The translations under genes were made by a program, and so were the position numbers. The notes beneath the pieces were generated by a model. The model was not told the origin of the DNA and did no database searches. It worked only from the letters and a program-made list of their open reading frames with translations. This document shows positions 1,569 to 22,598 of a DNA stretch of 64,000 nt, in pieces. Numbering within the stretch: position 1 is the stretch's first letter; the number at the start of each line of letters is the position of its first letter. This stretch comes from an uncultured Candidatus Saccharibacteria bacterium (GTDB lineage: Bacteria > Patescibacteriota > Minisyncoccia > RBG-13-40-8-A). Location of the stretch: assembly GCA_965231075.1 (NCBI GenBank), contig OZ246412.1:463282-527281 (forward strand), given 5' to 3'.

Positions 1569-1662
1569 ATACTTAATGAATGACGCAACCTATTTCGAGA
1601 GTCAAGAGCGTCCCATGTAGGCAAACTGTCGATAAATTATCTTGTGGTATTGTCCATTATTA

Positions 1663-2988: not shown

Positions 2989-3328
2989 CGTCTAGTGGCG
3001 TACTTATTTCGACCTTTGTTTTGTTATACTTCGGATGACACTTATTAAGACGATAAAGAACCGCCGGCCAGTATTTTTCTTTTATTAACAACAACAACTG
3101 ATGTTCGCTCATGTCGTTAATAAATTCATCGCCCTCAGCCATGGCATCTTCAACGGCCTTAGCAAATTCCGGATCTTCATTCCGCCACCGATAATAAGTG
3201 GCTTTTCCGACTCCAGCTTTCTCGCACGCCAACAACTGAATTGGGTATTTTCTCAGTTGCTCAAGTAAAATTTCTTTTTCTTTTACTTGTCTTGCTTTAA
3301 TTGTTTTTCGTTTTTTAGCGTTGTTCAT
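2960..3328 (-). CDS. small basic HTH protein, possible terminase small subunit
   Basis: 122 aa, basic N-terminus, HTH-like segment KATYYRWRNEDPEFAKAV; overlaps the start of the terminase-large-like gene (translational coupling). Confidence 0.35.
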   Translation of the reverse strand: MNNAKKRKTIKARQVKEKEILLEQLRKYPIQLLACEKAGVGKATYYRWRNEDPEFAKAVEDAMAEGDEFINDMSEHQLLLLIKEKYWPAVLYRLNKCHPKYNKTKVEISTPLDVEFNHNQKH

Positions 3329-4650
3329 ACAATTTTTTTGGCTTTTTGGCCAGTTAATTTTTCCCAGCGATATTTAATTACTTCTGTATATACTGGCGAC
3401 TTCTCCATTACATAACAACGTCGTTTCATTTTTTCGGCTGCAATTAAGGTGCTTCCCGACCCACCAAACGGTTCAACGATTAAATCATCGCGTTTGGTTA
3501 AGACTTTAATATATGGAATCAAAATCTCAATTGGCTTCGTGCCAAATACAACTCCTTGTCCGGAGTGTTTAGCATCTTCGGCGCGAAACTCGACGAAATC
3601 GCTTGGACAATATTTTTTTCCACCTTGATATTTTTCCCATTGCGGTTTGCCACTCGTTGCGTAGAGTGCTGTCTCGTATTCGTTTTGTAATAACTCTTCT
3701 TCCGGTTCAATGTTAAGTTGCTTATTTTTGGAACTTCCGACTAACGCAAAATCATATTTGTTGAAGAATTTGTATTTTGCCGAGAATCCCTGAGAACGAT
3801 TAGGCAAATGCCAAATGATCATATTCCGCACACGCCATCGTTTTTCAATTTCTGTCCAAATATGCGGAGCATTCTTCCAATACTCAAACACAATAATGCT
3901 GAAATCTTCTTTTGCAACAGTTTTTATATTCGTCATCCACTGTTCGGTAAAATTATCTGGCAATTCATCTGTTTCAAGATACCGACGATCACGTTTGTAA
4001 CCGAATCCTTTTTTTGTATTACCACGTCGCTTAATGCCCTGGAGGTATGCGAGCAAATAAGGAGGATCAGTGAACGACATATCTGCCTTTTCCCTATTCA
4101 TGAGCTTCAAGATATCTTTTTTAACAGTAGAATCTCCACACATTAAGCGGTGTGGTCCGAGCTGATACACATCGCCTTTCTTTACTTTAATCTTTTTGAT
4201 ATCCAGTTTGGCAAGTTCTTTTTCTAAATCAAACTCTTCTGCTACATCTTCGACCGCAAATATGTTGTCCAATTCTTCTGACGCAAATCCGATATCTGCC
4301 AAAAACGATTCCTTAAAATTAGTTAGCATGTCCCAGTCAAATTCTCCGGTATTTTTATTTAGTCGGATATTTAATTCTTTTTCTCTTTCAATGTCGGCAA
4401 TGTTTAAATACACAACCGGGATTTCTTTAAATTTTAATTCTTTAGCCGCCCGCAATCTCATGTGACCACCAATTACAACATTTTTTCTATTTGAAGCAAT
4501 GTTTACAATTATTGGATCAACTATTTGGAACCGCTTTATGCTTTTCTTCAGCTGTTCCATTGATTCTTTACTAATTTTTCGAGGATTATATTCGGATGGC
4601 TTAAGTTCGTTTATTGGAACATAAACGATATTTAGTTTATTATTTTGCAT
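3325..4650 (-). CDS. ParB-like nuclease domain fused to beta-class N6A/N4C DNA methyltransferase
   Basis: N-terminal ParB/Srx fold motif (NPRKISKESMEQLKKSIKRFQIVDPIIV...GGHMRLRAAKEL); C-terminal methyltransferase motif IV TDPPY followed by motif I EPFGGSGST. Confidence 0.8.
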   Translation of the reverse strand: MQNNKLNIVYVPINELKPSEYNPRKISKESMEQLKKSIKRFQIVDPIIVNIASNRKNVVIGGHMRLRAAKELKFKEIPVVYLNIADIEREKELNIRLNKNTGEFDWDMLTNFKESFLADIGFASEELDNIFAVEDVAEEFDLEKELAKLDIKKIKVKKGDVYQLGPHRLMCGDSTVKKDILKLMNREKADMSFTDPPYLLAYLQGIKRRGNTKKGFGYKRDRRYLETDELPDNFTEQWMTNIKTVAKEDFSIIVFEYWKNAPHIWTEIEKRWRVRNMIIWHLPNRSQGFSAKYKFFNKYDFALVGSSKNKQLNIEPEEELLQNEYETALYATSGKPQWEKYQGGKKYCPSDFVEFRAEDAKHSGQGVVFGTKPIEILIPYIKVLTKRDDLIVEPFGGSGSTLIAAEKMKRRCYVMEKSPVYTEVIKYRWEKLTGQKAKKIV

Positions 4651-6492: not shown

Positions 6493-6906
6493 ATGGAAAG
6501 TTTTGAAGAACAATTGAAACAAGGAATTCTTTATGGATTTATTCCCAAAGAGTTACAAATAGAGGGGCGTCCGGAATTAAACGTTTTTCCATTTAACGTT
6601 CTTTTTATGCGATTTAAACAAGAAGACGGGAAAACAATTTCCGGAAGCGCAGTATATGATCCAGATTTAAATTCGTTACAACAAGGCGCAGATAAATGGT
6701 CTATGCGTTACAATAACGCTTATGGTGGCGATAGTTGGCTTATAGTCGAATATGATATTGTGAGCAGGGGTTATCATGGTAAAAAATTCGTGAATGGTAA
6801 GTGCGTCGGAATAACAGATGGCCTAGAATGGAAAGGATTTTTTATACATCTCACCATATTGGGCCTATCCAATGGTGAACAATGCAGATTTGAGACTGTC
6901 GATTAA
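6493..6906 (+). CDS. hypothetical protein
   Basis: 137 aa ORF with AT-rich genome-typical codon usage; no motif recognised. Confidence 0.4.
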   Translation: MESFEEQLKQGILYGFIPKELQIEGRPELNVFPFNVLFMRFKQEDGKTISGSAVYDPDLNSLQQGADKWSMRYNNAYGGDSWLIVEYDIVSRGYHGKKFVNGKCVGITDGLEWKGFFIHLTILGLSNGEQCRFETVD

Positions 6907-7657
6907 ATTTCTCCAAAATCCAATTCAGGGACTGGAAAAAAGAGAAGAAAAGAGATATGATGAAGATGTAATGAAATCTATAAAAAACAATAGATTTATA
7001 ATTAAATCCAAGCAGAGAATCAAGGACCATGGAGAAGTATTTACTCCTGATTTTATTGTGCAAGAAATGCTTGATTTGGTAAAAAATGAAACTGAAAGGA
7101 TTGAATCCCGATTTTTGGAACCAGCTTGTGGCGATGGAAATTTTTTAGCTCCGATACTTGAGAGAAAACTTGAAGTGGTAAAGAGCAAATATAAATCAAG
7201 CCAAGTTGAATTTGAACGGAATGCTCTTTTGGCAGTGAGTAGTATTTATGGCGTTGAATTGTTGCAAGACAACGTTGTAGCGTGTATTGAGCGACTTTAT
7301 AAAATTGTTGATGAAGTATATTCAAAATTATACAAAGAAAAGTGCAGTATTGATTTTAGAAAAAGCATTCGATTTGTATTAAACAGGAATATCTTGCAAG
7401 GCAACGCGCTTGATCTAAAAACTTCTGATGGCAAAGAGCATATAGTTTTCTCCGAATGGTCACCTGCAAATGGCAGTTCAATTAAGAGAAGAGATTTTAG
7501 ATTTTTGGCTCTATCTAATTTTTATAAACCAGGCACATTGCCACTTGATTCAGTAAAAGAACTTTCAGATACCGGCGAAACCGTATTTTCCCCAATGCCG
7601 ATAAAAGAATTTCCGTTGAAACACTATCTTAAACTTGATTATGAAGATGCAAAATAA
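6872..7657 (+). CDS. N6-adenine methyltransferase-like protein lacking the catalytic NPPY/DPPY motif (methyltransferase paralog / possible partner subunit)
   Basis: motif X FTP ([13 protein letters not shown]) and motif [11 protein letters not shown] present, no motif IV anywhere in 261 aa; overlaps downstream methyltransferase gene start. Confidence 0.5.
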
Positions 7658-9137
7658 TTACAATCCGGACGTATTGTCGTGTTTAGCAAATCTTAGTAGT
7701 GATGAAGTTTTCACACCACCAAAATTAGCGAACGAAATATTAGATTTGCTTCCTCAAAAAATTTGGAAAGATAAAAACGCAACTTTTTTGGATCCGGTTT
7801 GTAAGTCGGGAGTATTCCTTCGCGAAATTGCAAGAAGATTGTTAGAGGGACTTAAAGAAGAAATCCCAGATATACAAAAACGCGTTGATCATATTTATAG
7901 GAATCAGCTTTTTGGAATAGGCATTACTGGATTGACCTCACTACTTTCTAGGCGCAGCTTGTATTGTTCAAAATCCGCTAATGGAAAATACTCTGTATCT
8001 AACACTTTTAATAATGAACAAGGTAATATTTCTTTCGAAAAGACGGAGCATGATTGGAAAAACGGAAGATGCTCTTTTTGTGGAGCTAGCCAATCAGAGT
8101 ATCAGCGTGAGAAGGGGCTCGAAACTCACGCTTATCAATTTATACATAATAAAAAACCTAATATAATAAACAATATGAAATTTGATGTAATTATAGGCAA
8201 CCCGCCTTATCAACTCGCGACAGGAGGAGCACAAGCACAAGCGACTCCCTTATATGATAAATTTGTTTTGCAGGCGAAGAAATTAAACCCACGCTTTTTA
8301 ACAATGATCATACCATCAAGATGGTTTTCAGGCGGGATGGGATTAAATGAATTTAGGGCAGAGATGTTAAAAGATACCAGAATAAGAAAATTGATTGATT
8401 ACCCAATATCATCAGAATGTTTTCCTGGTGTCGAGATTAAGGGGGGTGTATGCTATTTCCTTTGGGATAGGGAGAATAAAGGATTGTGTGAAGTTACTTC
8501 TATTAGAGGTGACAGAAAAACCATTTCTCAGAGACCCTTGTTGGAAGAGGGTCAAGACATTTTTATTAGATTTAATGAGGCATTGTCAATTTTATCTAAA
8601 GTAAAAAAACTTAAGGAAAAGTCTTTCTCCGATATCGTAAGTCCACAAAAACCTTTTGGTTTCCCAACAAATTTTAGAGGAAAAACTAAGCCATTCAAAA
8701 ACGCAGTTAAAATTTATGTCACAAAAGAAATAAATTACGTAAATAGAGAAGATATTTCTACTAATCTTGATTGGATTAATCAATATAAAATATTAATTAC
8801 CAAGGGTTATGGTGCTGGCGAAGATTACCCCCATCAGATAATTAATAAACCAATTCTAGCTGAACCAGGAAGTTGTTGTTCTGAGACTTATATTGTCTTG
8901 GGAACATTTTCAAATAAAACACAAGCTCAAAATGCAATATCCTATATAGAGACAAAATTCTTCCGATTTTTGGTGATGTTACAAAAAAACACTCAGGACG
9001 CATTGAGACGTGTTTATACTCTTGTCCCAATACAAGATTTTTCTGAATCATGGACTGACGAAAAGTTATATAAAAAATACAAATTAACAAAAGAAGAAAT
9101 TGAGTTTATTGAATCTATGATTCGTCCGATGAAATAA
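7635..9137 (+). CDS. gamma-class N6-adenine DNA methyltransferase (Eco57I/TaqI-like arrangement) with C-terminal target-recognition region
   Basis: motif X VFTPP, motif [12 protein letters not shown], motif [10 protein letters not shown] in canonical gamma order; ~300 aa C-terminal extension. Confidence 0.8.
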
Positions 9138-9138
9138 T

Positions 9139-11670
9139 ATGAGTAAAGATTTCTTTCCGCAAAAACCTGAAATTAGACCCACTATTTACGCCTATGAACT
9201 TATAGGCGTTGATTCACATAAGGGCCTGTTTAAGGTTGGCTACACTGTTCGTAATGCACAAGACAGAGTCGCCGAGCAATTAAAAACTAGCCGGCTTAAA
9301 TATAAAATTGTTCTCGAAGAATTCGCTGTTAGAAACGACGGAACTGCCTTTACAGATCATGAAGTCCATCATTATTTGAAACGTCGTAGCATTAAGAAAG
9401 AAGACGGAGAATGGTTTAAATGCACCGTAAAAGATATCAAGTCGGCTATCAATGATATAAGGAATCGAAAATTTAGTGTTGAAACGCGGGGATCAAATTT
9501 TAAAATGCGTCCAGAACAGAAGGCGGCGGTAGAAAAAACAGCAGATTATTTTGCGAGTTATAAAAAAGAAAATCCCAGTAAAACACCGCATTTTTTATGG
9601 AATGCAAAAATGCGTTTTGGTAAAACTTTTGCAACCTATCAATTGGCGAAAAAGATGGAGTGGACAAAGATTTTGGTAATGACTTTTAAGCCAGCAGTAG
9701 AAAGTGCTTGGGATGACGATTTAAAGGAACATGTTGATTTTCGAAATTGGCAATTTGTTTCAGCATCAGAGGACACGCTTTGGCATAAAGATATTAATCC
9801 CAAAAAACCGTTCGTGTGCTTCGGTTCATTTCAAGATTATTTAGGAAAAAATAAAAGCACAGGCGGTGTCAAAACAAAAAATAAGTGGGTACATAAAACT
9901 AAATGGGATTGTATTGTATTTGATGAATATCATTATGGTGCGTGGCGAGAAAATGCCAAAGAACTTTTTGAAGCAGAAGATAAAAAAGAAAAAGAATTTG
10001 CCGAGGGTCAAGGACTGGAATATTTAGACGAAAAAACATTGCCCATTGAAACGGAGGCATATTTATACCTTTCGGGGACTCCGTTTAGAGCAATAGCATC
10101 TGGCGAATTTATCGAGGAACAGATTTATAACTGGACATACTCGGACGAACAAAAAGCTAAAAATTCTTGGAATGACAAAGAAGGTTCTAATCCGTATGCC
10201 CCTCTTCCGCGCATGGTAATGATGACCTATCAACTACCGGATTCAATTCGAGATATAGCAATGCAGGGCGAATTCAATGAATTTGATTTGAACTTGTTTT
10301 TCTCTGCGGAGGGCAAGGGCAGGAATGCAAAATTTGCTTATGAGGACGAAGTTCAAAAATGGCTCGATTTGATTCGGGGTTCATTTTTAGAAACAACGAT
10401 TGACAACTTAAAGCTTGGCGCAAAAAAGCCTCCAATGCCCTTTTCTCATGCGGAACTTTTGAGTGTATTAAATCACACACTTTGGTTTTTGCCATCAGTT
10501 GCTTCGTGTCAGGCAATGTATAATTTACTAAAGAAAAAACAAAATACTTTTTATCATGATTATGAAATCATTGTGGCAGCAGGTCAGAAAGCGGGTATCG
10601 GGTTAAAAGCACTTCCGCCAGTTTTGGAAGCCATGGAAGATCCGCTGGAATCAAAAACTATTACTTTAACTTGTGGAAAGCTTTTGACTGGCGTAACCGT
10701 AAGGCCGTGGACAGGTATTTTCATGCTTCGCAATTGTTCAACTCCGGAAACATATTTTCAAGCCGCTTTCCGTGTTCAGTCTCCGTGGATCGTCAAAAAC
10801 CCGGATAACAAATCTCCGAATAAAGAAGAAATTATCAAGCAAGAGTGTTATGTCTTTGATTTTGCGCCCAATAGAGCATTGAGACAAATTGCTGAATATA
10901 GCTGTCGTCTTAACGTAAACGAATCTAATCCAGAGGCAAAAGTGGCTGAGTTTATAAGTTTTCTTCCGGTGCTTGCATATGATGGGAGTGCCATGAAACA
11001 AATCGATGCAGCGGGAATTTTAGACATGGCAATGAGTGGTACTACAGCAACACTTCTTGCGCGACGATGGGAAAGCGCCCTACTTGTAAATGTCGACAAC
11101 AATACATTAAACAGATTAATGAATGACAAAGCAGCAATGGACGCGCTCATGAGCATTGAAGGGTTTAGAAATTTGAATCAAGACATTGAGACGATTATTA
11201 ACAAATCCGAGTCTGTTGAAAAGATAAAAAGGGAGACGAACGACAAAGAGTTATCCAAAAAAGAGAAGAGAGAGCTTACCGAGGAAGAAAAAGAATACAA
11301 GAGTCTCCGCAAGCGGGTGCAGGATAAGCTTATTAAGTTTGCTACTCGCATACCCGTCTTTATGTATCTTACAGATTATCGCGAAAGAACATTAAAAGAT
11401 GTGATTACAAAACTAGAGCCTGGATTATTTAAAAAAGTTACCGGATTAACTCAAAAAGATTTCGAATTACTTGTAAGTCTCGGGGTATTCAATAGTGCAC
11501 TGATGAACGATGCGGTTTATAAGTTTAAGCGATATGAAGACGCGAGTCTTGTTTATACTGGAATAAATAAACACGAAGGTGAAAAAATAGGTCTTTATGA
11601 TACTGTGATCTCACAAGGAGAACATCGAAACGAGTCCGAAAAAATACTTATAAATAATCCGGCTGAATAA
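9139..11670 (+). CDS. T5orf172/GIY-YIG-like domain fused to SF2 (ResIII/DEAH-type) helicase; Res-like subunit
   Basis: N-terminal YAYELIGVDSHKGLFKVGYT...R motif of T5orf172/GIY-YIG superfamily; Walker A AKMRFGKT, motif II VFDEYHYGA, motif III LSGTPF, motif VI QAAFRVQS; start codon 1 nt after methyltransferase stop. Confidence 0.75.
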   Translation: MSKDFFPQKPEIRPTIYAYELIGVDSHKGLFKVGYTVRNAQDRVAEQLKTSRLKYKIVLEEFAVRNDGTAFTDHEVHHYLKRRSIKKEDGEWFKCTVKDIKSAINDIRNRKFSVETRGSNFKMRPEQKAAVEKTADYFASYKKENPSKTPHFLWNAKMRFGKTFATYQLAKKMEWTKILVMTFKPAVESAWDDDLKEHVDFRNWQFVSASEDTLWHKDINPKKPFVCFGSFQDYLGKNKSTGGVKTKNKWVHKTKWDCIVFDEYHYGAWRENAKELFEAEDKKEKEFAEGQGLEYLDEKTLPIETEAYLYLSGTPFRAIASGEFIEEQIYNWTYSDEQKAKNSWNDKEGSNPYAPLPRMVMMTYQLPDSIRDIAMQGEFNEFDLNLFFSAEGKGRNAKFAYEDEVQKWLDLIRGSFLETTIDNLKLGAKKPPMPFSHAELLSVLNHTLWFLPSVASCQAMYNLLKKKQNTFYHDYEIIVAAGQKAGIGLKALPPVLEAMEDPLESKTITLTCGKLLTGVTVRPWTGIFMLRNCSTPETYFQAAFRVQSPWIVKNPDNKSPNKEEIIKQECYVFDFAPNRALRQIAEYSCRLNVNESNPEAKVAEFISFLPVLAYDGSAMKQIDAAGILDMAMSGTTATLLARRWESALLVNVDNNTLNRLMNDKAAMDALMSIEGFRNLNQDIETIINKSESVEKIKRETNDKELSKKEKRELTEEEKEYKSLRKRVQDKLIKFATRIPVFMYLTDYRERTLKDVITKLEPGLFKKVTGLTQKDFELLVSLGVFNSALMNDAVYKFKRYEDASLVYTGINKHEGEKIGLYDTVISQGEHRNESEKILINNPAE

Positions 11671-11719: not shown

Positions 11720-12133
11720 ATGGAAAAGAAAATAACTGAAGACTTTGTTAAACATTCAATTATTAAGTGGTTATCGGCAAATAACTGGGGACATTTTCAG
11801 TTTGGCGGTTTGCACGAGCGAGGCGTTGATATTAGGGCGAAACACAATCAATATCCAATTTATTATTTTATAGAAACAAAAGGTCAAGGGAAAATTAGGC
11901 AGGCCGATGAAGTAGCATTTGTGTATTCATTAGGACAAATTATTACCAGAATGAAAACAAATAATACGAGAAATAAACATGCCTTAGGGTTGCCAGATAC
12001 AAGTGCAAAAATCGCCATCCGGCGTATTCCTTGGCAAATCGCTAAAAAGCTTTTGCTTTATGTGCTTTCCGTAGATCGCACCGGAAAAGTTAAACAATAT
12101 TCTTGGCAGGATTTAAAGAAAGTTCAGAAATAA
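11720..12133 (+). CDS. hypothetical small protein, possible PD-(D/E)xK fold
   Basis: 137 aa; GVDIRAK...YYFIETKG resembles D...ExK nuclease core; weak. Confidence 0.3.
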   Translation: MEKKITEDFVKHSIIKWLSANNWGHFQFGGLHERGVDIRAKHNQYPIYYFIETKGQGKIRQADEVAFVYSLGQIITRMKTNNTRNKHALGLPDTSAKIAIRRIPWQIAKKLLLYVLSVDRTGKVKQYSWQDLKKVQK

Positions 12134-13578: not shown

Positions 13579-14109
13579 ATGGATCAACTTAGTGGATTAT
13601 TTGGAAAATTGTTATTGTATTTGGGGCCAATTTTTATTGTGGCCTTAATAATTAAATATTTATTGCCAGAATTAATTAAGGCATTCAAGATAAGGAAGAA
13701 ATTTAAAGCTGGGCAAAAATGGAGTTCAGAAAAAGATTTAATTTATTGGTTGCGAGGAATGAAACCGTGGGAGTTTGAGGAATACATTTCTGGACTATTT
13801 TCAAAATTAGGTTATAAAATAGAAAAAGTCGGTGGAGGATATGATAAAGGAGTCGATGTTATTGCAGAGAAAAATGGAATTAAACACTATATCCAATGCA
13901 AGAAATACATAACTTCTGAAGTTGGAGTTGGCGAGGTTAGAGATTTTTATGGCGCAATTGCCGATCATTTGGCCCAAGGCAAGGGTTATTTCATAACCAC
14001 GAACAAATTCACCTTAGAAGCAGAAAAATTCGCTGAAAGCAAGCCAATCGAACTAATTGATTCTTATGGACTACTAAAGTATATTAAATTGGCAGAAGAT
14101 AAAAAATAA
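13579..14109 (+). CDS. membrane-anchored Mrr-like restriction endonuclease (Mrr_cat domain)
   Basis: N-terminal TM helix then YDKGVDVIAEK...IQCKKY (PD-(D/E)xK of Mrr family), GAIADHLAQGKGYFITT typical downstream segment. Confidence 0.65.
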   Translation: MDQLSGLFGKLLLYLGPIFIVALIIKYLLPELIKAFKIRKKFKAGQKWSSEKDLIYWLRGMKPWEFEEYISGLFSKLGYKIEKVGGGYDKGVDVIAEKNGIKHYIQCKKYITSEVGVGEVRDFYGAIADHLAQGKGYFITTNKFTLEAEKFAESKPIELIDSYGLLKYIKLAEDKK

Positions 14110-14111
14110 AA

Positions 14112-14798
14112 ATGCAAAAATTAGATAGAACGAAATATATTAGTGGAAAAAATCTCGGTGAATTGGCATTACAAAAATTTTGTCCAAGGTGTTTTTGGTT
14201 AAAAAGACACATTGGAGATACGCCGGGCGGTTTTCCTGGCATATTCTCCACTATCGATAGTTTAACCAAAAGAAGCACAAAGAGATCTTTTGATTCTAAA
14301 AATATTCCTCCACTTTGGTTAAAAATAAATGGTCTCAAAAAGGTTTTATCTGTTCCCAAGATAAAAGTTGATATGAGTGAGCATGGCGGATGGATTTTAA
14401 CTGGTGCCATTGATGATGCCTTTTTGAGAGATGACGGGACAGTGCATATCGTAGACTATAAGACCGCAAAGCATACAAAGACACAAGACGAATTACGACC
14501 AGAATACGATGTTCAATTAAATGCCTATGCACTTGCTTTACAAAAAATGGGGATTGGAAAGGTATCTCGTTTGTCTTTGATCTATTGCGAACCTAGTGAA
14601 AATTTAGATTCTGATAGTGATTTTAAATTATCTTTTAGTACACATATTGAAGATGTTGAAATAAACCCCGACCTTGTTCCCAAACTTCTGATTAAGGCAA
14701 GAAATATTTTAAATGCCGATATTCCCAATTCTATTGAAAAATGTACTGGTATTTGTTCGTGGATAGAAAAATACGACGTCAAAATGAGTAATTTATAA
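14112..14798 (+). CDS. Cas4/RecB-like PD-(D/E)xK nuclease with Cys cluster
   Basis: N-terminal CPRC, core GAIDDAF...VHIVDYKTAKH, C-terminal CTGICSW; architecture of Cas4/Dna2-type Fe-S nucleases; no CRISPR array nearby. Confidence 0.6.
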   Translation: MQKLDRTKYISGKNLGELALQKFCPRCFWLKRHIGDTPGGFPGIFSTIDSLTKRSTKRSFDSKNIPPLWLKINGLKKVLSVPKIKVDMSEHGGWILTGAIDDAFLRDDGTVHIVDYKTAKHTKTQDELRPEYDVQLNAYALALQKMGIGKVSRLSLIYCEPSENLDSDSDFKLSFSTHIEDVEINPDLVPKLLIKARNILNADIPNSIEKCTGICSWIEKYDVKMSNL

Positions 14799-14799
14799 A

Positions 14800-16308
14800 A
14801 TGAACGACGATTTATTGCAAAAATTAAAAGTCTGGAGACAAAACATGGTCAACATTGAAAAAGTTGAACCATTTCGAATTTTTACAAACAAAACATTGGA
14901 AAATATTGCAGAAATAAAACCATCAAACCGAGAGGAGCTGATGGCTATAAAGGGTATCAAAGATAGAAAATTTGCAAAATATGGAGAAAAGATTCTATCT
15001 ATAATCAATAATGGTGAAGAGTATCCAGAATTATTTAATAGTTCTCCAAACAAGCAACCCGACAAACCACTGTCTGTTAGTGCGTATATAGATTTGTTGA
15101 ATCATCAACTGAGCAAGTGTAGTGCCAGAATTAAGGGGGAAATTAGTAGTGTAGACACAAGAGATCGAGTTATATATTTCTCGCTCAAAGATTCAGACGA
15201 TGAGAGTATTATTAATTGTTTAATTTGGAAACGCGATTATAATTTGAGTGGCATTGAATTTGAGGTGGGCATGGAAGTTATTCTTGAAGGAACGCCCGAC
15301 ATGTACAAACCAACTGGTCGACTGTCGTTTAAGGCCTCATCGGTTGAGTTGGTTGGAGAGGGTGCCCTTAAAAAAGCATATGATCAATTGAAAAAGAAAC
15401 TCACCGCTGAAGGATTATTGTTAAAGGAGAGAAAAAGAGAAATTCCCAACCTTCCCCAAAAAATCGGAATAATTACTTCTCGACAAGGAGCAGTTTTAGC
15501 GGATTTCTTAAGTAATATTGGCCATTATGGTTTTAAAATTAAAATGATTGATTCTAGAGTCGAAGGACAGTCAGCTGTCACAGATTTACTGTCAGCCATT
15601 AAAACCATCAAGAAAAAAAATATTGAAGTTTTAGTTATCATGAGGGGCGGCGGTTCTTTTGAATCATTGCAGCCATTTAATAATGAATTATTAATTAGAG
15701 AGATTGTAAATTTTCCCGTTCCGGTAATTGCGGCAATTGGTCACGACAAAGACATGCCATTAGTTTCTTTGGTTGCAGACCTTGAAGTTTCCACGCCAAG
15801 CATTGCCGCCATTACGCTCAGCAAATCATGGAGGGAAGCCATTATGTTTTTAGAAAAGCATGAAAGAAGTATATTTGATAATTATGGAAATAACATAAAA
15901 AATACACACGACTTAATAAGTCAATCAATCGAGATAACTCGAGAATCCAGCGAATCTATTATCAAAAAATATAAAGATATTAAAAATAATTTTAGAGTCT
16001 CGGTCCAAATTTTTAAAAACACTTTATTAAATATTAAAGATGGTTTAACAGATTTTTGTAGCAAAACATTATTCGGTTTTAGCGGATTAGTTAAGAGAGG
16101 GTATCAACAACTGGAAAAATCGAGAAGCATTATCTCCGCGCATAATCCAGAACGACAATTGAGCCTGGGATACAGCATAGCTAGCATTGACGGCAAGATA
16201 GTTAAAAGCGTAAAAGATGCCACCGCGGGAAACAACATAAATTTAATGGTTACCGACGGAACGATTATTTCACAAATTAAAAATATAAATAAGAAATTAA
16301 TAAAATAA
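14800..16308 (+). CDS. xseA: exodeoxyribonuclease VII large subunit with N-terminal HRDC domain fusion
   Basis: residues ~1-80 match the HRDC pattern (LQKLKVWRQN..EPFRIFTNKTLENIAEIKPSNREELMAIKGIKDRKFAKYGEKIL); rest matches XseA (IGIITSRQGAVLADFL, VIMRGGGSFESL, AIGHDKD). Confidence 0.85.
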   Translation: MNDDLLQKLKVWRQNMVNIEKVEPFRIFTNKTLENIAEIKPSNREELMAIKGIKDRKFAKYGEKILSIINNGEEYPELFNSSPNKQPDKPLSVSAYIDLLNHQLSKCSARIKGEISSVDTRDRVIYFSLKDSDDESIINCLIWKRDYNLSGIEFEVGMEVILEGTPDMYKPTGRLSFKASSVELVGEGALKKAYDQLKKKLTAEGLLLKERKREIPNLPQKIGIITSRQGAVLADFLSNIGHYGFKIKMIDSRVEGQSAVTDLLSAIKTIKKKNIEVLVIMRGGGSFESLQPFNNELLIREIVNFPVPVIAAIGHDKDMPLVSLVADLEVSTPSIAAITLSKSWREAIMFLEKHERSIFDNYGNNIKNTHDLISQSIEITRESSESIIKKYKDIKNNFRVSVQIFKNTLLNIKDGLTDFCSKTLFGFSGLVKRGYQQLEKSRSIISAHNPERQLSLGYSIASIDGKIVKSVKDATAGNNINLMVTDGTIISQIKNINKKLIK

Positions 16309-16313
16309 ATAAT

Positions 16314-16547
16314 ATGCCAAAAGAATATGCCAAAAATTTAAATAATGATCTTAAGCGCTTATCGGAGATTACCGATTGGTTTAATAATCAAGAAGAAGTT
16401 GACGTAGAAGAGGGACTAAAAAAAGTGAAAGAAGCGGTCGGACTCATTAAGGCCAGTAAATCCAGACTTAAAGAGATAGAGAACGAATTTGAAGAAATTA
16501 AAAAGGAAATAGAAACAGAAGAAAAAACGGATGAAGAAAATAATTAA
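16314..16547 (+). CDS. xseB: exodeoxyribonuclease VII small subunit
   Basis: 77 aa, acidic helical protein directly downstream of xseA; LSEITDWFNNQE..VDVEEGLKKVKEAVGLIKASKSRL fits XseB. Confidence 0.75.
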   Translation: MPKEYAKNLNNDLKRLSEITDWFNNQEEVDVEEGLKKVKEAVGLIKASKSRLKEIENEFEEIKKEIETEEKTDEENN

Positions 16548-16562
16548 TGATTTTAATAAAAC

Positions 16563-17255
16563 ATGATTTCTCCCAAAGCAATAAAAGAATTCCAAGAAAT
16601 ATACAAGAAAGAATATGACAAGGAATTGACCCACGAAGAAGCAGCGGAGGCCAGCCGTAATTTGGCTGGCCTTTTTGAGATTTTATATAACAGCCACATC
16701 GCCGAACTTAAATTGAAAGAAAAACTGAAAAAATCTCCTAAGGGGTTTTCGTTAATGGATGGTCAAACCTATAACTGCGGCATTTGCCATGCCCAAATAA
16801 AAGACGAAGAACTTTGGTATGATAAATGGGGCAAAAAATGTTTGGCCTGCCAAGACGCAATCAATAAAAAAATCATTCCCGGGAAGATTTGTTATAACGA
16901 TAAATATTGGTATGCCACATGGGAACTTGAATCATATCTTAAATTGAAATCGCCGACGGTTAAAAAACTTATTCGACAAGGTGTTTTAAATGTTCGCATT
17001 ATACCCAAAAGTGGTTTTGAAGTTTTTCTTTTAAAAGAGAATGCTGATGTACTACCACCTAAAAATGTTTTAGAGCATGTTTCTGTGCCAACGAAAGGTG
17101 AAGAGAATACAATTACCATAACTCCTTGGTATGAAATTTATGATCCTAAAAAGGTACTTAGAAAATATAAGATTTGGCCATATTTAACAGCATTCCAGCA
17201 GTCCCCAAAAAATCATAAGCACTGTCGCATTTTGAAGGCAATGAAGAACTATTGA
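16563..17255 (+). CDS. hypothetical protein with CxxC...CxxC zinc ribbon
   Basis: 230 aa; CGICHAQ...KKCLACQ. Confidence 0.4.
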   Translation: MISPKAIKEFQEIYKKEYDKELTHEEAAEASRNLAGLFEILYNSHIAELKLKEKLKKSPKGFSLMDGQTYNCGICHAQIKDEELWYDKWGKKCLACQDAINKKIIPGKICYNDKYWYATWELESYLKLKSPTVKKLIRQGVLNVRIIPKSGFEVFLLKENADVLPPKNVLEHVSVPTKGEENTITITPWYEIYDPKKVLRKYKIWPYLTAFQQSPKNHKHCRILKAMKNY

Positions 17256-17279
17256 AATTAATCAAACCAAACAAAAATC

Positions 17280-18017
17280 ATGATTTATATTAAACTTAAA
17301 GGTAAAAATATGGTGTGTTTTGATGAAATCGAATTAGATAATTTGTATAAACAAAAACAATTTTTAGAAATTTTAAAGGAAATGTCTAGGCAAAATGTTA
17401 CATTTAACGACATAAGAAATGATGAACAAAAAATGTTAGATATCTCAAGTGCCATATCGCAAAACGCATCTAAGAGCAAAGAAGAACATGAATTTTTTTC
17501 GGCTTTTTACATATTCTTGAGATTTTATAAAAAAGACAGTAAGGTTTGTTTTGAATTAAAACATACTTTTGACTTTAAACAAACAATAGACACATTCGAA
17601 GACCTAAAAAAGGCAACAGAAGAAGATACTCTAAATGATTTCATTATTAAATCTGGAAACGAAATAAAATTATTTCAGTTAAAAAGATTTCGAGATGAAG
17701 CAAAAACCGACCAAGCACAAAGGTTTATAAAAAAAGTATTATTACATTACGGTAATAACCTGGGAGAAACAAATTTATTAATAATGCTAGAATCTCCAAA
17801 ATGGGGATCTGCCATAGAAGAGAAATTTTTTGAGAATATAAACAAAGAAATTAATAGCTTAAAACTGAAATCAGAATCACAAATACTAATTGCATATAAC
17901 GAAAATAATATGCACAGCGTTGTTGTTCAGGTCTATCCAAGACTCGCCAAATCACAAATTCCTCTAAAAATAAACTATAGGTCTCTATTGTCAGAATATG
18001 AAAAACGTCAAAATTAA
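17280..18017 (+). CDS. hypothetical protein
   Basis: 245 aa, charged/helical, no motif recognised. Confidence 0.4.
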   Translation: MIYIKLKGKNMVCFDEIELDNLYKQKQFLEILKEMSRQNVTFNDIRNDEQKMLDISSAISQNASKSKEEHEFFSAFYIFLRFYKKDSKVCFELKHTFDFKQTIDTFEDLKKATEEDTLNDFIIKSGNEIKLFQLKRFRDEAKTDQAQRFIKKVLLHYGNNLGETNLLIMLESPKWGSAIEEKFFENINKEINSLKLKSESQILIAYNENNMHSVVVQVYPRLAKSQIPLKINYRSLLSEYEKRQN

Positions 18018-18023
18018 ACTTCA

Positions 18024-18602
18024 ATGACAATGATTTCAGAAAAACAATTTAAAGAAAATCTAATATATAATTTAAACCGCCTTAGCTTAGGATGGATTGA
18101 TGGAGATAAACAAAATCACAATAACAGAACCGCTGATATAGTAAACCATCGGGTCAAGACAGCTATAGAGATTAAAGACGACACAAAATACAAAACCGAA
18201 CTACCCACGGTCCCCGGGGTTATAATTGGACAGGGATGTGATCTAACAAAGATGAATCAACGATATAGTGATCATGTTAAGTCAGCAAACAATAAATTTA
18301 AACAATATCCTGGCTATAAAACAATTTTAATTTTCAGAACAGAATTTATAATTACCGATATTATTCGATATGCAATTGAGGGGTTGCATTCTTATCAGAA
18401 ATCAGGAGCTGGAATGACGTATATTGGTCGGAGAGGCAAATATTCACAATTCGCTAAAAACGAAATAGGATGTTTTATTATAATCAATGGAGGTGATTTT
18501 GGTTATTTCCCAAACCAACTCTCAAAAGAAGATCGTATCATGAGTAAAGATGAGATAGAAATAATATTCGGACACAAATTTAACGATATCTCTACAAGAT
18601 AA
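18024..18602 (+). CDS. hypothetical protein, possible PD-(D/E)xK nuclease fold
   Basis: 192 aa; TADIVNHRVKTAIEIKDD resembles D...ExK core. Confidence 0.35.
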   Translation: MTMISEKQFKENLIYNLNRLSLGWIDGDKQNHNNRTADIVNHRVKTAIEIKDDTKYKTELPTVPGVIIGQGCDLTKMNQRYSDHVKSANNKFKQYPGYKTILIFRTEFIITDIIRYAIEGLHSYQKSGAGMTYIGRRGKYSQFAKNEIGCFIIINGGDFGYFPNQLSKEDRIMSKDEIEIIFGHKFNDISTR

Positions 18603-18607
18603 AGCAT

Positions 18608-19579
18608 ATGGTTAAGAATAAAAACATTATAATTGTAGTTGGAACAATTTTAGCAATAATAATTATCGCGGTTTTTGTGTTTCTATATCAATTTTCCGCG
18701 CCACGAAGAAATGCTGAAGAAGAAAGCATAGTGGTTAATTCTACCACCACCACAACAGAATTAATCCCAAAATTAAAAGAACAGGGATATATAAAAAATA
18801 TATGGGCATTTAAATTTGCGTTAAAGAATGGAGAAGTTAGACCAGGCGGATATAAAATTTCAAAAGGCATGAATGCGTGGAAAATTGCCAGAATATTAAC
18901 TGGCGAGCCATATATGAAATGGGTCGTGATTCCCGAAGGATTAAGAAAAGAACAAATAGCGAAAATCCTTAGCGATGAACTTGGCTGGAACGAACAACAA
19001 GAAAGTGATTGGATTAAAAAATACACCGCCATGAAATTCGATTATATTGAGGGCGTTTATTTTCCCGATACCTACCTTATACCGAAAAATGAAAATGGAC
19101 TAGAAGTTGCCCAACGTTTTATTAATAAATTTAACGAAGAATTTGCATCGTATTCTGATAAATTTACACAAGCGAATATTAAATGGACCACCGCCTTAAA
19201 AATCGCTTCACTTATTCAGCGAGAAGCAGGAAGCAAAGACGATATGCCGCTTATTGCGGGCATAATCTGGAACCGCTTATCAAAAGATATGAAGCTCGAA
19301 ATTGACGCCACGCTGCAGTATGCCAGAGGTGATACCGGCAATGGTTGGTGGTCACCAATCAATGTATCGGACAAACAGACCGATTCGCCATATAATACTT
19401 ATCTTTATAAGGGACTTCCGCCTCATCCAATTTGTAATCCGGGAATCAACGCCATAGACGCGGTTTTAAATCCTACCCAGACCGATTGTTTATATTATTT
19501 ACATGATTCGAATAGACAAATTCATTGTGCCGTAACCTACGAGGAGCATAAAGCAAACATTGAAAAATATCTAAAATAA
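18608..19579 (+). CDS. mltG: endolytic murein transglycosylase MltG (YceG family)
   Basis: N-terminal TM helix, YFPDTYLIP and LASLIQREAGSKDDMPLIAGIIWNRL motifs. Confidence 0.85.
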   Translation: MVKNKNIIIVVGTILAIIIIAVFVFLYQFSAPRRNAEEESIVVNSTTTTTELIPKLKEQGYIKNIWAFKFALKNGEVRPGGYKISKGMNAWKIARILTGEPYMKWVVIPEGLRKEQIAKILSDELGWNEQQESDWIKKYTAMKFDYIEGVYFPDTYLIPKNENGLEVAQRFINKFNEEFASYSDKFTQANIKWTTALKIASLIQREAGSKDDMPLIAGIIWNRLSKDMKLEIDATLQYARGDTGNGWWSPINVSDKQTDSPYNTYLYKGLPPHPICNPGINAIDAVLNPTQTDCLYYLHDSNRQIHCAVTYEEHKANIEKYLK

Positions 19580-19622: not shown

Positions 19623-20591
19623 ATGAGTCACAAAATATTCTCAGAAAAAATTGATCTTATTCACAAGGCTCGCGAAGCCATGCTTTCGGCTGTTCAAATT
19701 TATAATAATCCACTCATCACATTTAAGACAGAATCTTTTATAGTTCTATCATTAATTGCGTGGACTTATATGCTTCATGCACACTATCGTTCTGAGAGAA
19801 TTGATTATCGTTATTCTACTATACCAAAAAAGCGCAAAAAATTTGTTCGTAATCCAGACGGAAGTATTCGTTATTGGGATCTAACGGAATGTATTTCCCG
19901 ACAAGCCTGTCCTCTCGACAAAGACACAAAAAATAATTTAGGCTTTCTGATAGGATTGCGGAATCAAATTGAACACAAAAAAGCTACGGGACTAGATTCA
20001 TATCTATCGGCTCGTTATCAAGCATGTGCCCTAAATTTTAATTATTACCTTAAAAAAATTCATGGAGAAAAATTTGGATTAGATCAAAGCCTAGCTCTAA
20101 GTTTACAATTTGCGGAACTCGATTATTCTCAATCAAAAATTATCAAAGATAAAGAAGGATTAATACCTCAGGATATAATTTCTTATATCGCTAATTTCGA
20201 TGGCAAACTATCAAATGCCGAGATAGAGAGTGACAGATTCGCATATAGATTACTTTTTACTAAAGTGGTTGCGAAAAGAAAAGGACAAGCAGATAGAGTT
20301 ATCGAGTTTATTGATCCAAATTCGAAGCTAGCCAAGAATATCTCTCAGCAATATTGGGTTAAAGAAGAAAAAGAGAAAGCAAAGTTTTCTGCGACTCAAG
20401 TAATCCAAAAAGTGCAAGAAGCTGGATTTAAAAGTTTTAGCATGCATCAACATACTGTTTTTTGGAAAGAGCGTGATGGCAAAAATCCCGACAAGGGATT
20501 CGGGGTAATTGTGGTTAAAACATGGTGTTGGTACCAAAATTGGATTGATTGCATAATCAACGAACTTAATAATGAAAAAACGGACAAATGA
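19623..20591 (+). CDS. HEPN-domain protein (Rx4-6H motif), Abi-like
   Basis: alpha-helical protein with GLRNQIEHKK (R-x4-H HEPN signature). Confidence 0.55.
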   Translation: MSHKIFSEKIDLIHKAREAMLSAVQIYNNPLITFKTESFIVLSLIAWTYMLHAHYRSERIDYRYSTIPKKRKKFVRNPDGSIRYWDLTECISRQACPLDKDTKNNLGFLIGLRNQIEHKKATGLDSYLSARYQACALNFNYYLKKIHGEKFGLDQSLALSLQFAELDYSQSKIIKDKEGLIPQDIISYIANFDGKLSNAEIESDRFAYRLLFTKVVAKRKGQADRVIEFIDPNSKLAKNISQQYWVKEEKEKAKFSATQVIQKVQEAGFKSFSMHQHTVFWKERDGKNPDKGFGVIVVKTWCWYQNWIDCIINELNNEKTDK

Positions 20592-21302: not shown

Positions 21303-21305
21303 AAT

Positions 21306-21390
21306 GGAGGAGTCGCATAGTGGCCTAGTGCGACGGTCTTGAAAACCGTTAGAGGGCAACCTCTCGTGAGTTCGAATCTCACCTCCTCCG
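21306..21390 (+). tRNA. tRNA-Ser (anticodon TGA), long variable arm
   Basis: acceptor ggaggag/ctcctcc, anticodon stem acggt/accgt with loop cttgaaa, T-arm gtgag ttcgaat ctcac; folded by hand. Confidence 0.9.
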
Positions 21391-21415
21391 AATTCAAAAT
21401 TAATGACAAGTAAAA

Positions 21416-22526: not shown

Positions 22527-22598
22527 GCCCTTGTCGTTCAACGGACAGGACGCGAACTTGCGGAGTTCGAAATCGAGGTTCGACTCCTCGTGAGGGCA
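22527..22598 (+). tRNA. tRNA, probably Arg (anticodon reads GCG); atypical
   Basis: acceptor gcccttg/tgagggc (two G-U pairs), D-stem gttc/ggac, anticodon stem cgaac/gttcg loop ttgcgga, T-arm cgagg ttcgact cctcg. Confidence 0.5.

Follow-up and report, generated by a model that had tools for sequence, protein, structure and literature searches.

Three adjacent genes, here termed ORFs A, B and C, are probably functionally independent accessory genes at the edge of a ~20-kb mobile-element-associated restriction/defence island in the small genome of a Patescibacteria (CPR) member. ORF A would be a DNA-binding protein of the element, ORF C a PD-(D/E)xK nuclease and ORF B likely a variant nuclease. 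The original prediction, made from the letters of the window (the whole stretch of 64,000 nucleotides that was analysed) and its open reading frames, had grouped the three as one small defence or toxin-antitoxin module. The distribution of their homologues in other genomes does not bear out such a module.

The Locus and Its Genes

ORFs A, B and C are genuine genes (Table 1). They had been described as three tightly spaced ORFs on the plus strand, and their coordinates and lengths proved exact, with gaps of 24 nt between A and B and 6 nt between B and C. Gaps of 15 and 5 nt separate xseB from ORF A and ORF C from yceG, respectively. The predicted location between xseB and mltG also held, with XseA and an xseB-sized ORF encoded upstream and YceG/MltG downstream; recG lies 4 kb downstream of ORFs B and C. 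Transcription-unit boundaries around the three ORFs were not evident in a scan for promoters and terminators. The GC content of ORF B is 0.274, the lowest of the genes checked, while that of ORF C is 0.328 and that of the window 0.361.

Table 1. Genes and other features of the window around ORFs A, B and C.
Feature	Position in window	Strand	Evidence or remark
Large serine recombinase (Resolvase, Recombinase and Zn_ribbon_recom domains)	246-1568	-	Distal gene of the cassette
Terminase large subunit-like protein (TerL)	1663-2988	-	Terminase_6N, 1.1e-13
HTH_Tnp_1_2 protein	2960-3328	-	Resembles small terminase subunit (TerS-like)
ParB_N + N6_N4 DNA methyltransferase fusion	3325-4650	-	Cassette gene nearest A in other genomes
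Eco57I/MmeI-like methyltransferase, cargo	6872-7657 and 7635-9137	+	Split over two ORFs
T5orf172 (GIY-YIG) + ResIII helicase, cargo	9139-11670	+	
Mrr-type restriction endonuclease (Mrr_cat), cargo	13579-14109	+	Profile match
PDDEXK_1/Cas4-like nuclease, cargo	14112-14798	+	Profile match
xseA (N-terminal HRDC domain; Exonuc_VII_L) and 77-aa xseB-sized ORF	14800-16547	+	Directly 5' of ORF A
ORF A, 230 aa	16563-17255	+	Cys4 zinc ribbon and probable MerR/excisionase-type HTH
ORF B, 245 aa	17280-18017	+	Small CPR family; probable variant restriction-endonuclease-like core
ORF C, 192 aa	18024-18602	+	Predicted stand-alone PD-(D/E)xK nuclease; family without Pfam entry
yceG/mltG	18608-19579	+	PF02618, 3.6e-73; 3' of ORF C
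DUF3644 (HEPN) protein	19623-20591	+	DUF3644, 4.6e-54; PADLOC candidate PDC-S19, 8e-129; RNQIEH = Rx4H
tRNA-Ser(UGA)	21305-21391	+	

Homologues of all three ORFs come exclusively from Patescibacteria (CPR) or metagenomes. They form 68 clusters for ORF A and 11 for ORF B; for ORF C there are 19 close clusters, and a profile search gives 87. The genes had been called uncharacterised, and none of the three has a significant match in profile scans of Pfam, PADLOC, NCBIfam and PHROGs. In PADLOC-DB v2, ORFs B and C have zero matches and ORF A only a meaningless one to GajB (E = 0.016, 12 bits). Searches of the PDB by sequence and profile, with ORF C and with alignments of A, B and C, returned only noise. 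The literature yielded no paper on the element that contains ORF A or on the B and C families.

The surroundings of ORFs A-C are supported as a restriction/defence island, in agreement with the defence-rich context that had been proposed. The predicted setting among nucleases is borne out by the Mrr_cat and PDDEXK_1/Cas4-like genes upstream. A HEPN gene had been said to follow. Such a gene is present, since DUF3644 has been placed among the HEPN families (PMC3710099), but yceG lies between it and ORF C.

Distribution of ORFs A, B and C in Other Genomes

Across other genomes the three ORFs part company. None of 82 ORF A loci has ORF B or C within 8 kb. When 80 ORF A loci with 8-kb flanks were searched by tblastn, neither B and C nor XseA, XseB and YceG were found, save a distant XseA match at one locus (L050). 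Even a homologue 85% identical to ORF A is located between a ParB-methyltransferase gene and aminoacyl-tRNA synthetase genes, with neither B nor C close by. ORF C has ~16 distinct neighbourhoods, with flanking genes that bear no relation to one another, and ORF B occurs in at least five, among them loci without C (L088-L093 and L116-L118). Apart from this window, adjacent B and C genes were found in a single close relative, L001, which has kept both of them and has no A. Linkage of xseA or xseB to A, B or C was not found in other genomes. On the other side, yceG adjoins ORF C not only in this window but also in L001 and the L002 group, three lineages in all, and is a probable border of the variable region.

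These distributions do not bear out a single three-gene defence or toxin-antitoxin system. Tight spacing, shared orientation and a neighbourhood rich in defence genes would all fit such a system, but close packing in compact CPR genomes is by itself no sign of a functional module. Moreover, a toxin-antitoxin system would call for a pairing conserved across genomes, whereas A-B and A-C pairs occur nowhere else and B-C only in the window and L001. The three-gene system is extremely improbable given the 82 A loci without B or C, the retention of B and C without A in L001, the lack of meaningful PADLOC matches for any of the three, and the association of A with a terminase/recombinase cassette instead. 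The original prediction had named homologues scattered through core-genome contexts unrelated to defence as evidence against itself. The homologues are indeed scattered as far as linkage among A, B and C is concerned. Their contexts, however, do not count against the prediction, because they are mostly restriction-modification or mobile-element contexts and not core-genome ones.

ORF C, a Predicted PD-(D/E)xK Nuclease

The original prediction had pointed to a PD-(D/E)xK-like motif (TADIV...AIEIKDD) in ORF C. Of its key residues, D38 and E49 never vary among 62 diverse homologues, and conservation of K51 is at least 90%. Two further positions, G27 and D28, are likewise invariant. The AF2 model (pLDDT 95.2, pTM 0.90) has an alpha-beta-beta-beta-alpha-beta core composed of H6-20, E24-26, E39-41, E46-57, H74-92 and E99-107. 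In this model the conserved positions fall in strands 2 and 3, with D38 at the start of strand 2 and E49-x-K51 in strand 3. The model is structurally similar to established PD-(D/E)xK members and has the restriction-endonuclease fold. The nuclease motif was upheld by structure, with its confident model and canonical core, but not by sequence profiles. Neither ORF C nor any of 62 relatives has a match in Pfam, and none was found among PADLOC, NCBIfam, PHROGs or PDB profiles. Based on the model, ORF C is predicted to be a stand-alone Mg2+-dependent PD-(D/E)xK endonuclease that would be catalytically active on DNA. It may cut DNA as a restriction-like defence effector.

The neighbours of the ORF C homologues bear on what such an enzyme would target. 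In two genomes (L105 and L107), a C homologue is nested in the order HsdS-C-HsdR, where its junctions either overlap or are 2 nt long. Two further contexts, L006 (L006/L106) and L103, have it divergent from an N6_N4 methyltransferase, and these are the only two of ~16 contexts with a stand-alone methyltransferase beside ORF C. No methyltransferase adjoins ORF C in the window, where the nearest are the ParB fusion at 3325-4650 and the Eco57I-like gene at 6872-9137. Because in most contexts no methyltransferase adjoins ORF C, its more probable targets are foreign or modified DNA, or else it uses a methyltransferase encoded elsewhere.

The latter option would make ORF C a classical type II endonuclease, with one of these two genes as the candidate for its distant methyltransferase. 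Its restriction-endonuclease fold, the divergent methyltransferase genes of L006/L106 and L103 and the presence of several methyltransferases within 15 kb in the window are consistent with this. By inspection, the L103 methyltransferase also appears to have the N-terminal HTH typical of self-regulating restriction-modification methylases. Nevertheless, a type II enzyme is unlikely. In addition to the rarity of an adjacent methyltransferase, those of L006 and L103 are barely alike (29% over 77 aa), and close relatives of either are absent from the window. In L105 and L107 the C gene is nested in a complete type I system with its own nuclease subunit, and a type II enzyme on its own would normally kill the cell.

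ORF B, a Probable Variant Nuclease

Alongside the predicted nuclease ORF C, ORF B probably contains a variant nuclease core, D120...(Q/E)133-x-K135. E71, D120 and K135 are invariant, while at position 133 ten sequences have Q and one has E. The model (pLDDT 79, pTM 0.74) comprises H72-82, E88-93, E121-125, E128-137, H143-157 and E164-170. This topology is compatible with a nuclease core in which E71 belongs to helix 1, D120 to the start of strand 2 and (Q/E)133-x-K135 to strand 3. Fold searches with ORF B gave weak matches only, and Foldseek against the PDB returned nothing significant. In L088-L093, ORF B is the fourth and last gene after those for an HTH_3 controller, a 246-aa HNH-like protein and a methyltransferase, separated by a 10-nt gap. 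ORF B is probably a second small protein, unrelated to C, that rides along with restriction-modification operons. B and C appear to be unrelated because comparison of their profiles gave a probability of only 0.9%.

Two proteins compatible with nuclease cores, encoded on the same strand with a 6-nt spacer, could nevertheless form a two-gene unit to which A is unrelated. Such a unit might be a heterodimeric PD-(D/E)xK nuclease of two subunits or a nuclease with a partner or immunity protein. BbvCI and BspD6I are heterodimeric restriction-type nucleases with two different subunits. The order B-C-YceG is also conserved in L001, with protein identity of ~68-70%. However, L001 is a close relative whose Mrr is 89% identical to that of the window, and so its gene order may be merely inherited synteny. 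Moreover, a frameshift has broken its B homologue into two parts that lie in different frames (7258-7680 and 7698-7988), whereas its C gene is intact. About 14 other C contexts have no B, at least four other B contexts have no C, and the GC contents of the two genes differ sharply (0.274 and 0.328). It is therefore quite improbable that B and C function as one unit.

Another explanation is that B, C or both are housekeeping nucleases of DNA repair or recombination, for example resolvase-like or Vsr/NucS-like enzymes, grouped with xseAB, yceG and recG. The proximity of xseA/xseB, of recG 4 kb downstream and of yceG, which adjoins C in three lineages, would favour this role. It is very improbable in view of the sparse distribution of both families, which number 87 C and 11 B clusters among billions of proteins although CPR genomes are abundant. 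In addition, the neighbourhoods differ widely between genomes, C homologues occur nested in restriction-modification operons, and the GC content of ORF B is atypical. Overall, ORFs B and C are probably separate, previously unclassified restriction-enzyme-like nucleases, with a canonical core predicted for C and a probable variant core for B.

ORF A and the Mobile Element

In ORF A, a helical region at the N-terminus is followed by a Cys4 zinc ribbon and a probable MerR/excisionase-type HTH (residues ~121-153). The CxxC...CxxC zinc ribbon noted in the original prediction was confirmed by its four cysteines, C72, C75, C93 and C96, which are invariant in 28 homologues. The window copy matches HTH_17 only at E = 0.1, and its score of 13.3 bits falls short of the 27-bit cutoff. 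Within the family, however, HTH_17 is matched by 9 of 28 members (best 4e-5) and MerR by 4 of 28 (best 3e-5). The last ~14 residues of the window copy stem from an apparent 1-nt indel, a 3' frameshift relative to the homologues. Judging from its sequence and gene neighbours, ORF A appears to be a sequence-specific DNA-binding protein and a backbone gene of a CPR-wide mobile element. It could act as a regulator of the element's divergent operon or as a recombinase helper resembling an excisionase or directionality factor.

The element is recognized by a recurrent cassette of genes. Within 8 kb of the 82 A loci, a ParB-methyltransferase was found at 38, a TerS-like gene at 32, a serine recombinase at 26 and TerL at 20. 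The order ParB-methyltransferase, TerS, TerL and serine recombinase, running away from A, is present at ~34 of the 82. The window contains the same cassette (246-4650) in the same order and orientation, 11.9 kb upstream of ORF A and with defence-type cargo between. Its ParB-methyltransferase is 65% identical to one located 1.2 kb from A in another genome (L119). In other genomes, 9 of 15 intervals between cassette and A contain a LexA/CI-like repressor, and their variable cargo includes an M78 peptidase, an MBL-fold protein, E2+ThiF and DUF2779. The length of this slot is 0.1-6.3 kb elsewhere and 11.9 kb here. The slot does not include ORFs B and C, which lie between A and yceG.

These arrangements suggest an element in which the serine recombinase, TerL, TerS-like and ParB-methyltransferase genes would be read one way and the LexA/CI-like repressor, variable cargo and A the other. 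ORF A would mark the far end of the cargo slot, which here may have grown to 11.9 kb of restriction-type genes. The simple idea of a cargo slot is complicated by xseA/xseB, which are normally housekeeping genes and lie inside the supposed cargo interval. Three other genomes have a tRNA-Ser(UGA) or tRNA-Arg(GCG) 2-4 kb downstream of their A homologues, and the tRNA-Ser(UGA) of the window is possibly an island boundary or attachment region. A search for flanking attachment-site repeats in positions 1-24000 of the window found only AT-rich chance matches. Scans of IMG/VR detected a single distant A homologue and neither B nor C. In tblastn searches, A had zero matches among GenBank phages, and B and C had none among PLSDB plasmids.

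A bolder proposal combines these observations and is offered only tentatively, with considerable doubt. It holds that ORF C is the founding member of a family, confined to the CPR, of stand-alone, methyltransferase-free, restriction-like defence nucleases, which can act alone or nested in type I restriction-modification operons. It further holds that A and the cassette define an undescribed, phylum-wide phage- or satellite-like element of the Patescibacteria with a slot that serves as a defence hotspot.

Implications for the CPR

CRISPR-Cas is largely missing from the CPR/Patescibacteria, which are believed to depend on defences of the restriction type. Their accessory genes are mostly unannotated, and the detection of prophages and islands in their genomes is currently poor. 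ORF C provides a confidently modelled fold and predicted catalytic residues for a nuclease family without a Pfam entry that comprises 87 clusters at 50% identity, and the ORF B family now has a plausible assignment as a nuclease. ORF A, a widespread 'hypothetical' zinc-ribbon/HTH protein, appears to mark a recurrent element that has a terminase, a serine recombinase and a slot for variable cargo. As a marker it could guide searches of CPR genomes for mobile elements and for new defence cargo.

Comparison with Known Systems

The probable HTH of ORF A (residues ~121-153) resembles those of MerR/excisionase-type proteins (HTH_17, MerR; Xis/AlpA-like). Like the Xis/AlpA-like regulators, ORF A is carried by a recombinase-bearing element and in many genomes lies beside its divergent promoter region. 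What sets it apart from excisionases is the additional helical region at the N-terminus, the Cys4 zinc ribbon, a WYE...YKIW segment conserved at the C-terminus, and a length of ~219 aa, far above that of a typical excisionase. The recombinase of its element is also of the serine and not the tyrosine type.

The P2/P4-type hotspots of temperate phages and satellites contain variable defence genes flanked by conserved genes. The CPR element is alike in having a conserved backbone, with the cassette on one side and A on the other, around variable and often defence-like content. However, it is found in a different host phylum, its backbone genes differ, its slot in the window includes the housekeeping-type xseAB, and it is only a candidate phage or satellite.

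ORF C shares with the closest known PD-(D/E)xK nucleases the same core, the Asp at the start of strand 2 and the E-x-K in strand 3. Like them, it is small, stand-alone and found in restriction-modification contexts. In contrast, identity to these nucleases is at most 15%, only ~55-60% of ORF C can be aligned, and they lack a counterpart of its beta-rich C-terminal half (~99-192). ORF C also has no cyclic-nucleotide sensor as in NucC, no delivery domain as in CdiA and no helicase as in Hna, and it usually has no cognate methyltransferase.

In the HEC approach, new defence genes were found by their embedding in restriction-modification operons (bioRxiv 10.1101/2024.01.29.577857). While the window copy of ORF C differs from such genes in lying outside any restriction-modification operon, and has zero PADLOC matches, its homologues in two genomes likewise lie between hsdS and hsdR, and their junctions are coupled.

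Gene Layout and Conservation

The three plus-strand ORFs lie exactly where they were first placed, and their coordinates, strand, and sizes all agree with the original prediction. Upstream of A are XseA (Exonuc_VII_L, with HRDC at the N-terminus) and an ORF of xseB size, and downstream of C is YceG/MltG, with spacers along xseB/A/B/C/yceG of 15, 24, 6, and 5 nt, respectively. Pfam, PADLOC, NCBIfam, and PHROGs gave no significant match for any of the three, none of them matches a known defence system model, and C has no sequence relative in the PDB. A, B, and C are all genuine conserved genes. The clusters of homologues number 68 at 90% identity for A, 11 for B (one of them 100% identical), and 19 close ones for C, for which profile searching among 1.84 billion representatives gave 87 clusters at 50% identity. 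The named relatives and the 80 A-bearing genome contigs nearly all carry titles of Patescibacteria/CPR lineages, with a few titled otherwise.

Features of the window discussed in the text (SerRec, serine recombinase; ParB-MT, ParB-methyltransferase)
Feature	Position	Strand	Remarks
SerRec	246-1568	-	cassette
TerL (Terminase_6N)	1663-2988	-	cassette
TerS-like	2960-3328	-	cassette
ParB-MT	3325-4650	-	cassette
Eco57I/MmeI-like methyltransferase	6872-9137		two overlapping ORFs, 6872-7657 and 7635-9137
T5orf172(GIY-YIG)+ResIII helicase	9139-11670		directly after the split methyltransferase
Unknown protein	11720-12133		137 aa
XseA	14800-16308		N-terminal HRDC domain, 9e-20
ORF A	16563-17255	+	230 aa
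ORF B	17280-18017	+	245 aa
ORF C	18024-18602	+	192 aa
DUF3644 protein	19623-20591		next gene after yceG; Rx4H motif (RNQIEH); PADLOC PDC-S19, 8e-129
tRNA-Ser(UGA)/tRNA-Arg(GCG) region	21305-21391 and 22527-22598

Distribution of the Three Genes

The three ORFs had been proposed to form a small defence or toxin-antitoxin module. Of this proposal, the defence context and nuclease motif stand, but A, B, and C do not form a module, since their distributions are separate. The search of 80 species-level genome loci with A homologues, across 8 kb flanks, used the B, C, XseA, XseB, and YceG proteins of the window as queries. B, C, XseB, and YceG were found in none, and a distantly related XseA in one locus only. 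An A homologue of 85% identity (loci L119/L120) lies between a ParB-methyltransferase and genes for tRNA-Met, CysRS, and GluRS, with neither B nor C alongside. Among approximately 16 distinct C contexts, clustered over four genes per side, the only neighbour families in common were B (the window and locus L001), YceG (three lineages), and a few scattered others. The sole other B-C pair is that of L001, a close relative (Mrr 89% and YceG 71% identical), where B is broken by a frameshift and C is intact. B also occurs without C in the L088-L093 and L116-L118 loci, and the two proteins have no detectable relationship to one another (hhalign probability 0.9%).

ORF C, a Predicted Nuclease

In a 62-sequence alignment with identities reaching down to about 20%, G27, D28, D38, and E49 of C are invariant, and conservation is 90% or higher at K51, W24, D26, and N41. 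The AlphaFold2 model built from this alignment (pLDDT 95.2, pTM 0.90) consists of H6-20, E24-26, E39-41, E46-57, H74-92, and E99-107. Specifically, D38 is at the N-terminus of strand 2 and strand 3 holds E49-x-K51, which in the model is the canonical PD-(D/E)xK arrangement.

A clear example of C embedded in a type I restriction-modification operon is locus L105 (5748-9954), where it lies between hsdS and hsdR, overlapping hsdS by 4 nt and separated from hsdR by 2 nt. The gene order is alike in a second genome (L107), and the HsdS proteins of the two are 74% identical. C is divergent from an N6_N4 methyltransferase in two other contexts (L006/L106 and L103), and in the L002 group a methyltransferase+ResIII pair and a T5orf172 gene are found upstream. 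Further neighbours include Hypoth_Ymh, PIN, Fic, and tyrosine integrases, as well as a LexA-like repressor and GroEL, the last two named by sequence inspection or tblastn rather than by Pfam scan. Based on these contexts, C is a sparse, mobile nuclease gene that stands alone and clearly favours restriction-modification and mobile regions. In most of its contexts, it lacks a methyltransferase of its own. We commit to C as a predicted metal-dependent DNA endonuclease and restriction-like defence effector, which would either be type II-like, the methyltransferase acting in trans, or depend on modification.

ORF B, a Tentative Nuclease

The 11-member B family has invariant E71, S87, C90, F91, D120, F121, S125, F132, L134, K135, R136, and R138, with ten members having Q at position 133 and the other having E. 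Its AF2 model (pLDDT 79, pTM 0.74) comprises H72-82, E88-93, a helix insertion, E121-125, E128-137, H143-157, and E164-170. As with C, the model fits an alpha-beta-beta-beta-alpha-beta core. E71 precedes helix 1, D120 opens strand 2, and strand 3 contains (Q/E)133-x-K135. Fold searches were not decisive, and Foldseek returned no match at E <= 0.001.

In L088-L093, from another Paceibacteria lineage, B occupies the fourth place in an operon, behind an HTH_3 controller, a 246-aa HNH-like protein, and an N6_N4 methyltransferase, with a 10-nt gap before it (e.g., L092, 100-2817). The 246-aa protein has no Pfam match and is HNH-like by eye (CxxC...H...CQKCN). One possibility is that this operon is a type II system in which an HNH endonuclease has gone unrecognised and an accessory nuclease is included. 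In L093, the operon is succeeded by a homologue of the serine recombinase. The B contexts in L116-L118 consist of small unannotated genes. In the window, B has the lowest GC (0.274) and GC3 (0.228) of the 35 genes measured, compared with a window GC of 0.361, which suggests recent horizontal acquisition. Overall, B is probably a variant PD-(D/E)xK protein associated with restriction-modification, with moderate to low confidence in the fold.

ORF A and Its Linked Cassette

In an alignment of 28 homologues, C72, C75, C93, and C96 of A are invariant together with W85, D87, G90, and K92, which indicates a Cys4 zinc ribbon. Beyond the ribbon, on its downstream side, the window protein matches HTH_17 weakly (E = 0.1), while among the 28 family members HTH_17 is matched by nine (best 4e-5) and MerR by four. 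From these matches, A is predicted to combine a zinc ribbon with a MerR/excisionase-type HTH. Its C-terminus (17195-17255) is unlike that of every homologue and ends in frame with the 14-residue tail NHKHCRILKAMKNY, and the -1 frame reads ...PKKS*, as in the homologues. The shift of frame has the appearance of a 1-nt indel within a C4A6 homopolymer run, whether by genuine mutation or through an error of assembly.

A tblastn survey of neighbours at 82 loci (8 kb reach) placed a ParB_N+N6_N4 methyltransferase near A in 38, an HTH_Tnp_1_2 (TerS-like) protein in 32, a large serine recombinase in 26, a TerL-like protein in 20, HsdR in 13, and a LexA-like repressor in 12. Going outward from A, the order ParB-MT, TerS-like, TerL, SerRec is kept in about 34 of the 82 CPR loci. 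Of these, 22 have the cassette divergent from A, which is also the configuration in the window, and ten have it co-directional and directly upstream, three of them with a spacing of about 116 bp. The window ParB-MT is 65% identical to that beside A in L119 and lies 11.9 kb from A, compared with 0.1-6.3 kb in other genomes. This interval opens with a LexA/CI-like S24 repressor in 9 of 15 other genomes, and the rest is non-conserved, including ImmA/IrrE M78 peptidase, MBL-fold, Prok-E2_B+ThiF, DUF2779, and TPR proteins. In the window it holds the split methyltransferase, the T5orf172+ResIII helicase, three unknown proteins, an Mrr-type nuclease, a Cas4-like PDDEXK_1 nuclease, and xseAB.

Given the collinear cassette and the variable interval, A is best interpreted as belonging to the backbone of a CPR element that carries recombinase and terminase genes around a variable cargo slot. 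From its domains and position, it could act as a regulator of the divergent operon or as a recombination directionality factor. The element itself may be a prophage, a satellite, or a decayed island. Homologues of A were absent from GenBank phages and present in one IMG/VR contig only (L098). No description of such an element was found in the searchable literature, and its recurrence across Patescibacteria is the more interesting by-product of this analysis.

In L119 (7948-14456), the 85%-identical A and a serine-recombinase fragment (78% identity to that of the window) are set apart by genes for tRNA-Met, CysRS, GluRS, SAM synthetase, inositol-1-P synthase, and a SET-domain protein. Either the element is rearranged there, or it carries housekeeping-type genes.

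The Surrounding Island

Between about 0.2 kb and the tRNA-Ser(UGA) of the window, tightly packed mobile-element and restriction-type genes predominate, and the housekeeping-type xseAB and yceG are scattered among them. In L001, 7.5 kb separates B-C-YceG from an upstream TerS-like gene with 55% identity to that of the window, the cargo between them is different, and A is absent, which is consistent with a single variable region from cassette to yceG in the window/L001 lineage. In three further genomes (L025, L037, and L010), tRNA-Ser(UGA) or tRNA-Arg(GCG) is 2-4 kb downstream of the A homologue, a hint that this tRNA region is a conserved insertion region of the element. No flanking repeats were found.

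The 137-aa unknown protein has, by eye, a PD-(D/E)xK-like GVDI...(13 residues)...IETKG pattern, and a 36%-identical homologue lies near the A homologue of L063. Counting it with Mrr, the Cas4-like protein, B, and C, the number of small nuclease-fold genes within 7 kb may reach five. Frameshift or phase variation of a type IIG/IIL gene could account for the split Eco57I/MmeI-like ORFs. The HRDC-XseA fusion appears unusual, and xseAB is placed amid otherwise mobile or defence cargo.

DUF3644 has been classed as a HEPN family (PMC3710099), and two DUF3644 proteins are reported defence genes, the anti-phage HEC-08 (10.1101/2024.01.29.577857) and the anti-plasmid Ishtar (10.64898/2026.07.06.735840). 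The window's DUF3644 gene is probably a functional single-gene defence.

Comparison with Known Systems

C is a member of none of the described PD-(D/E)xK families and, in the window, differs from type II restriction-modification in having no adjacent methyltransferase. By its modelled fold, it belongs to the PD-(D/E)xK superfamily and would work alike. Small, new families of this superfamily turn up often in defence islands. B is assigned to it tentatively, and A belongs, loosely, to the HTH_17/MerR class of DNA-binding proteins.
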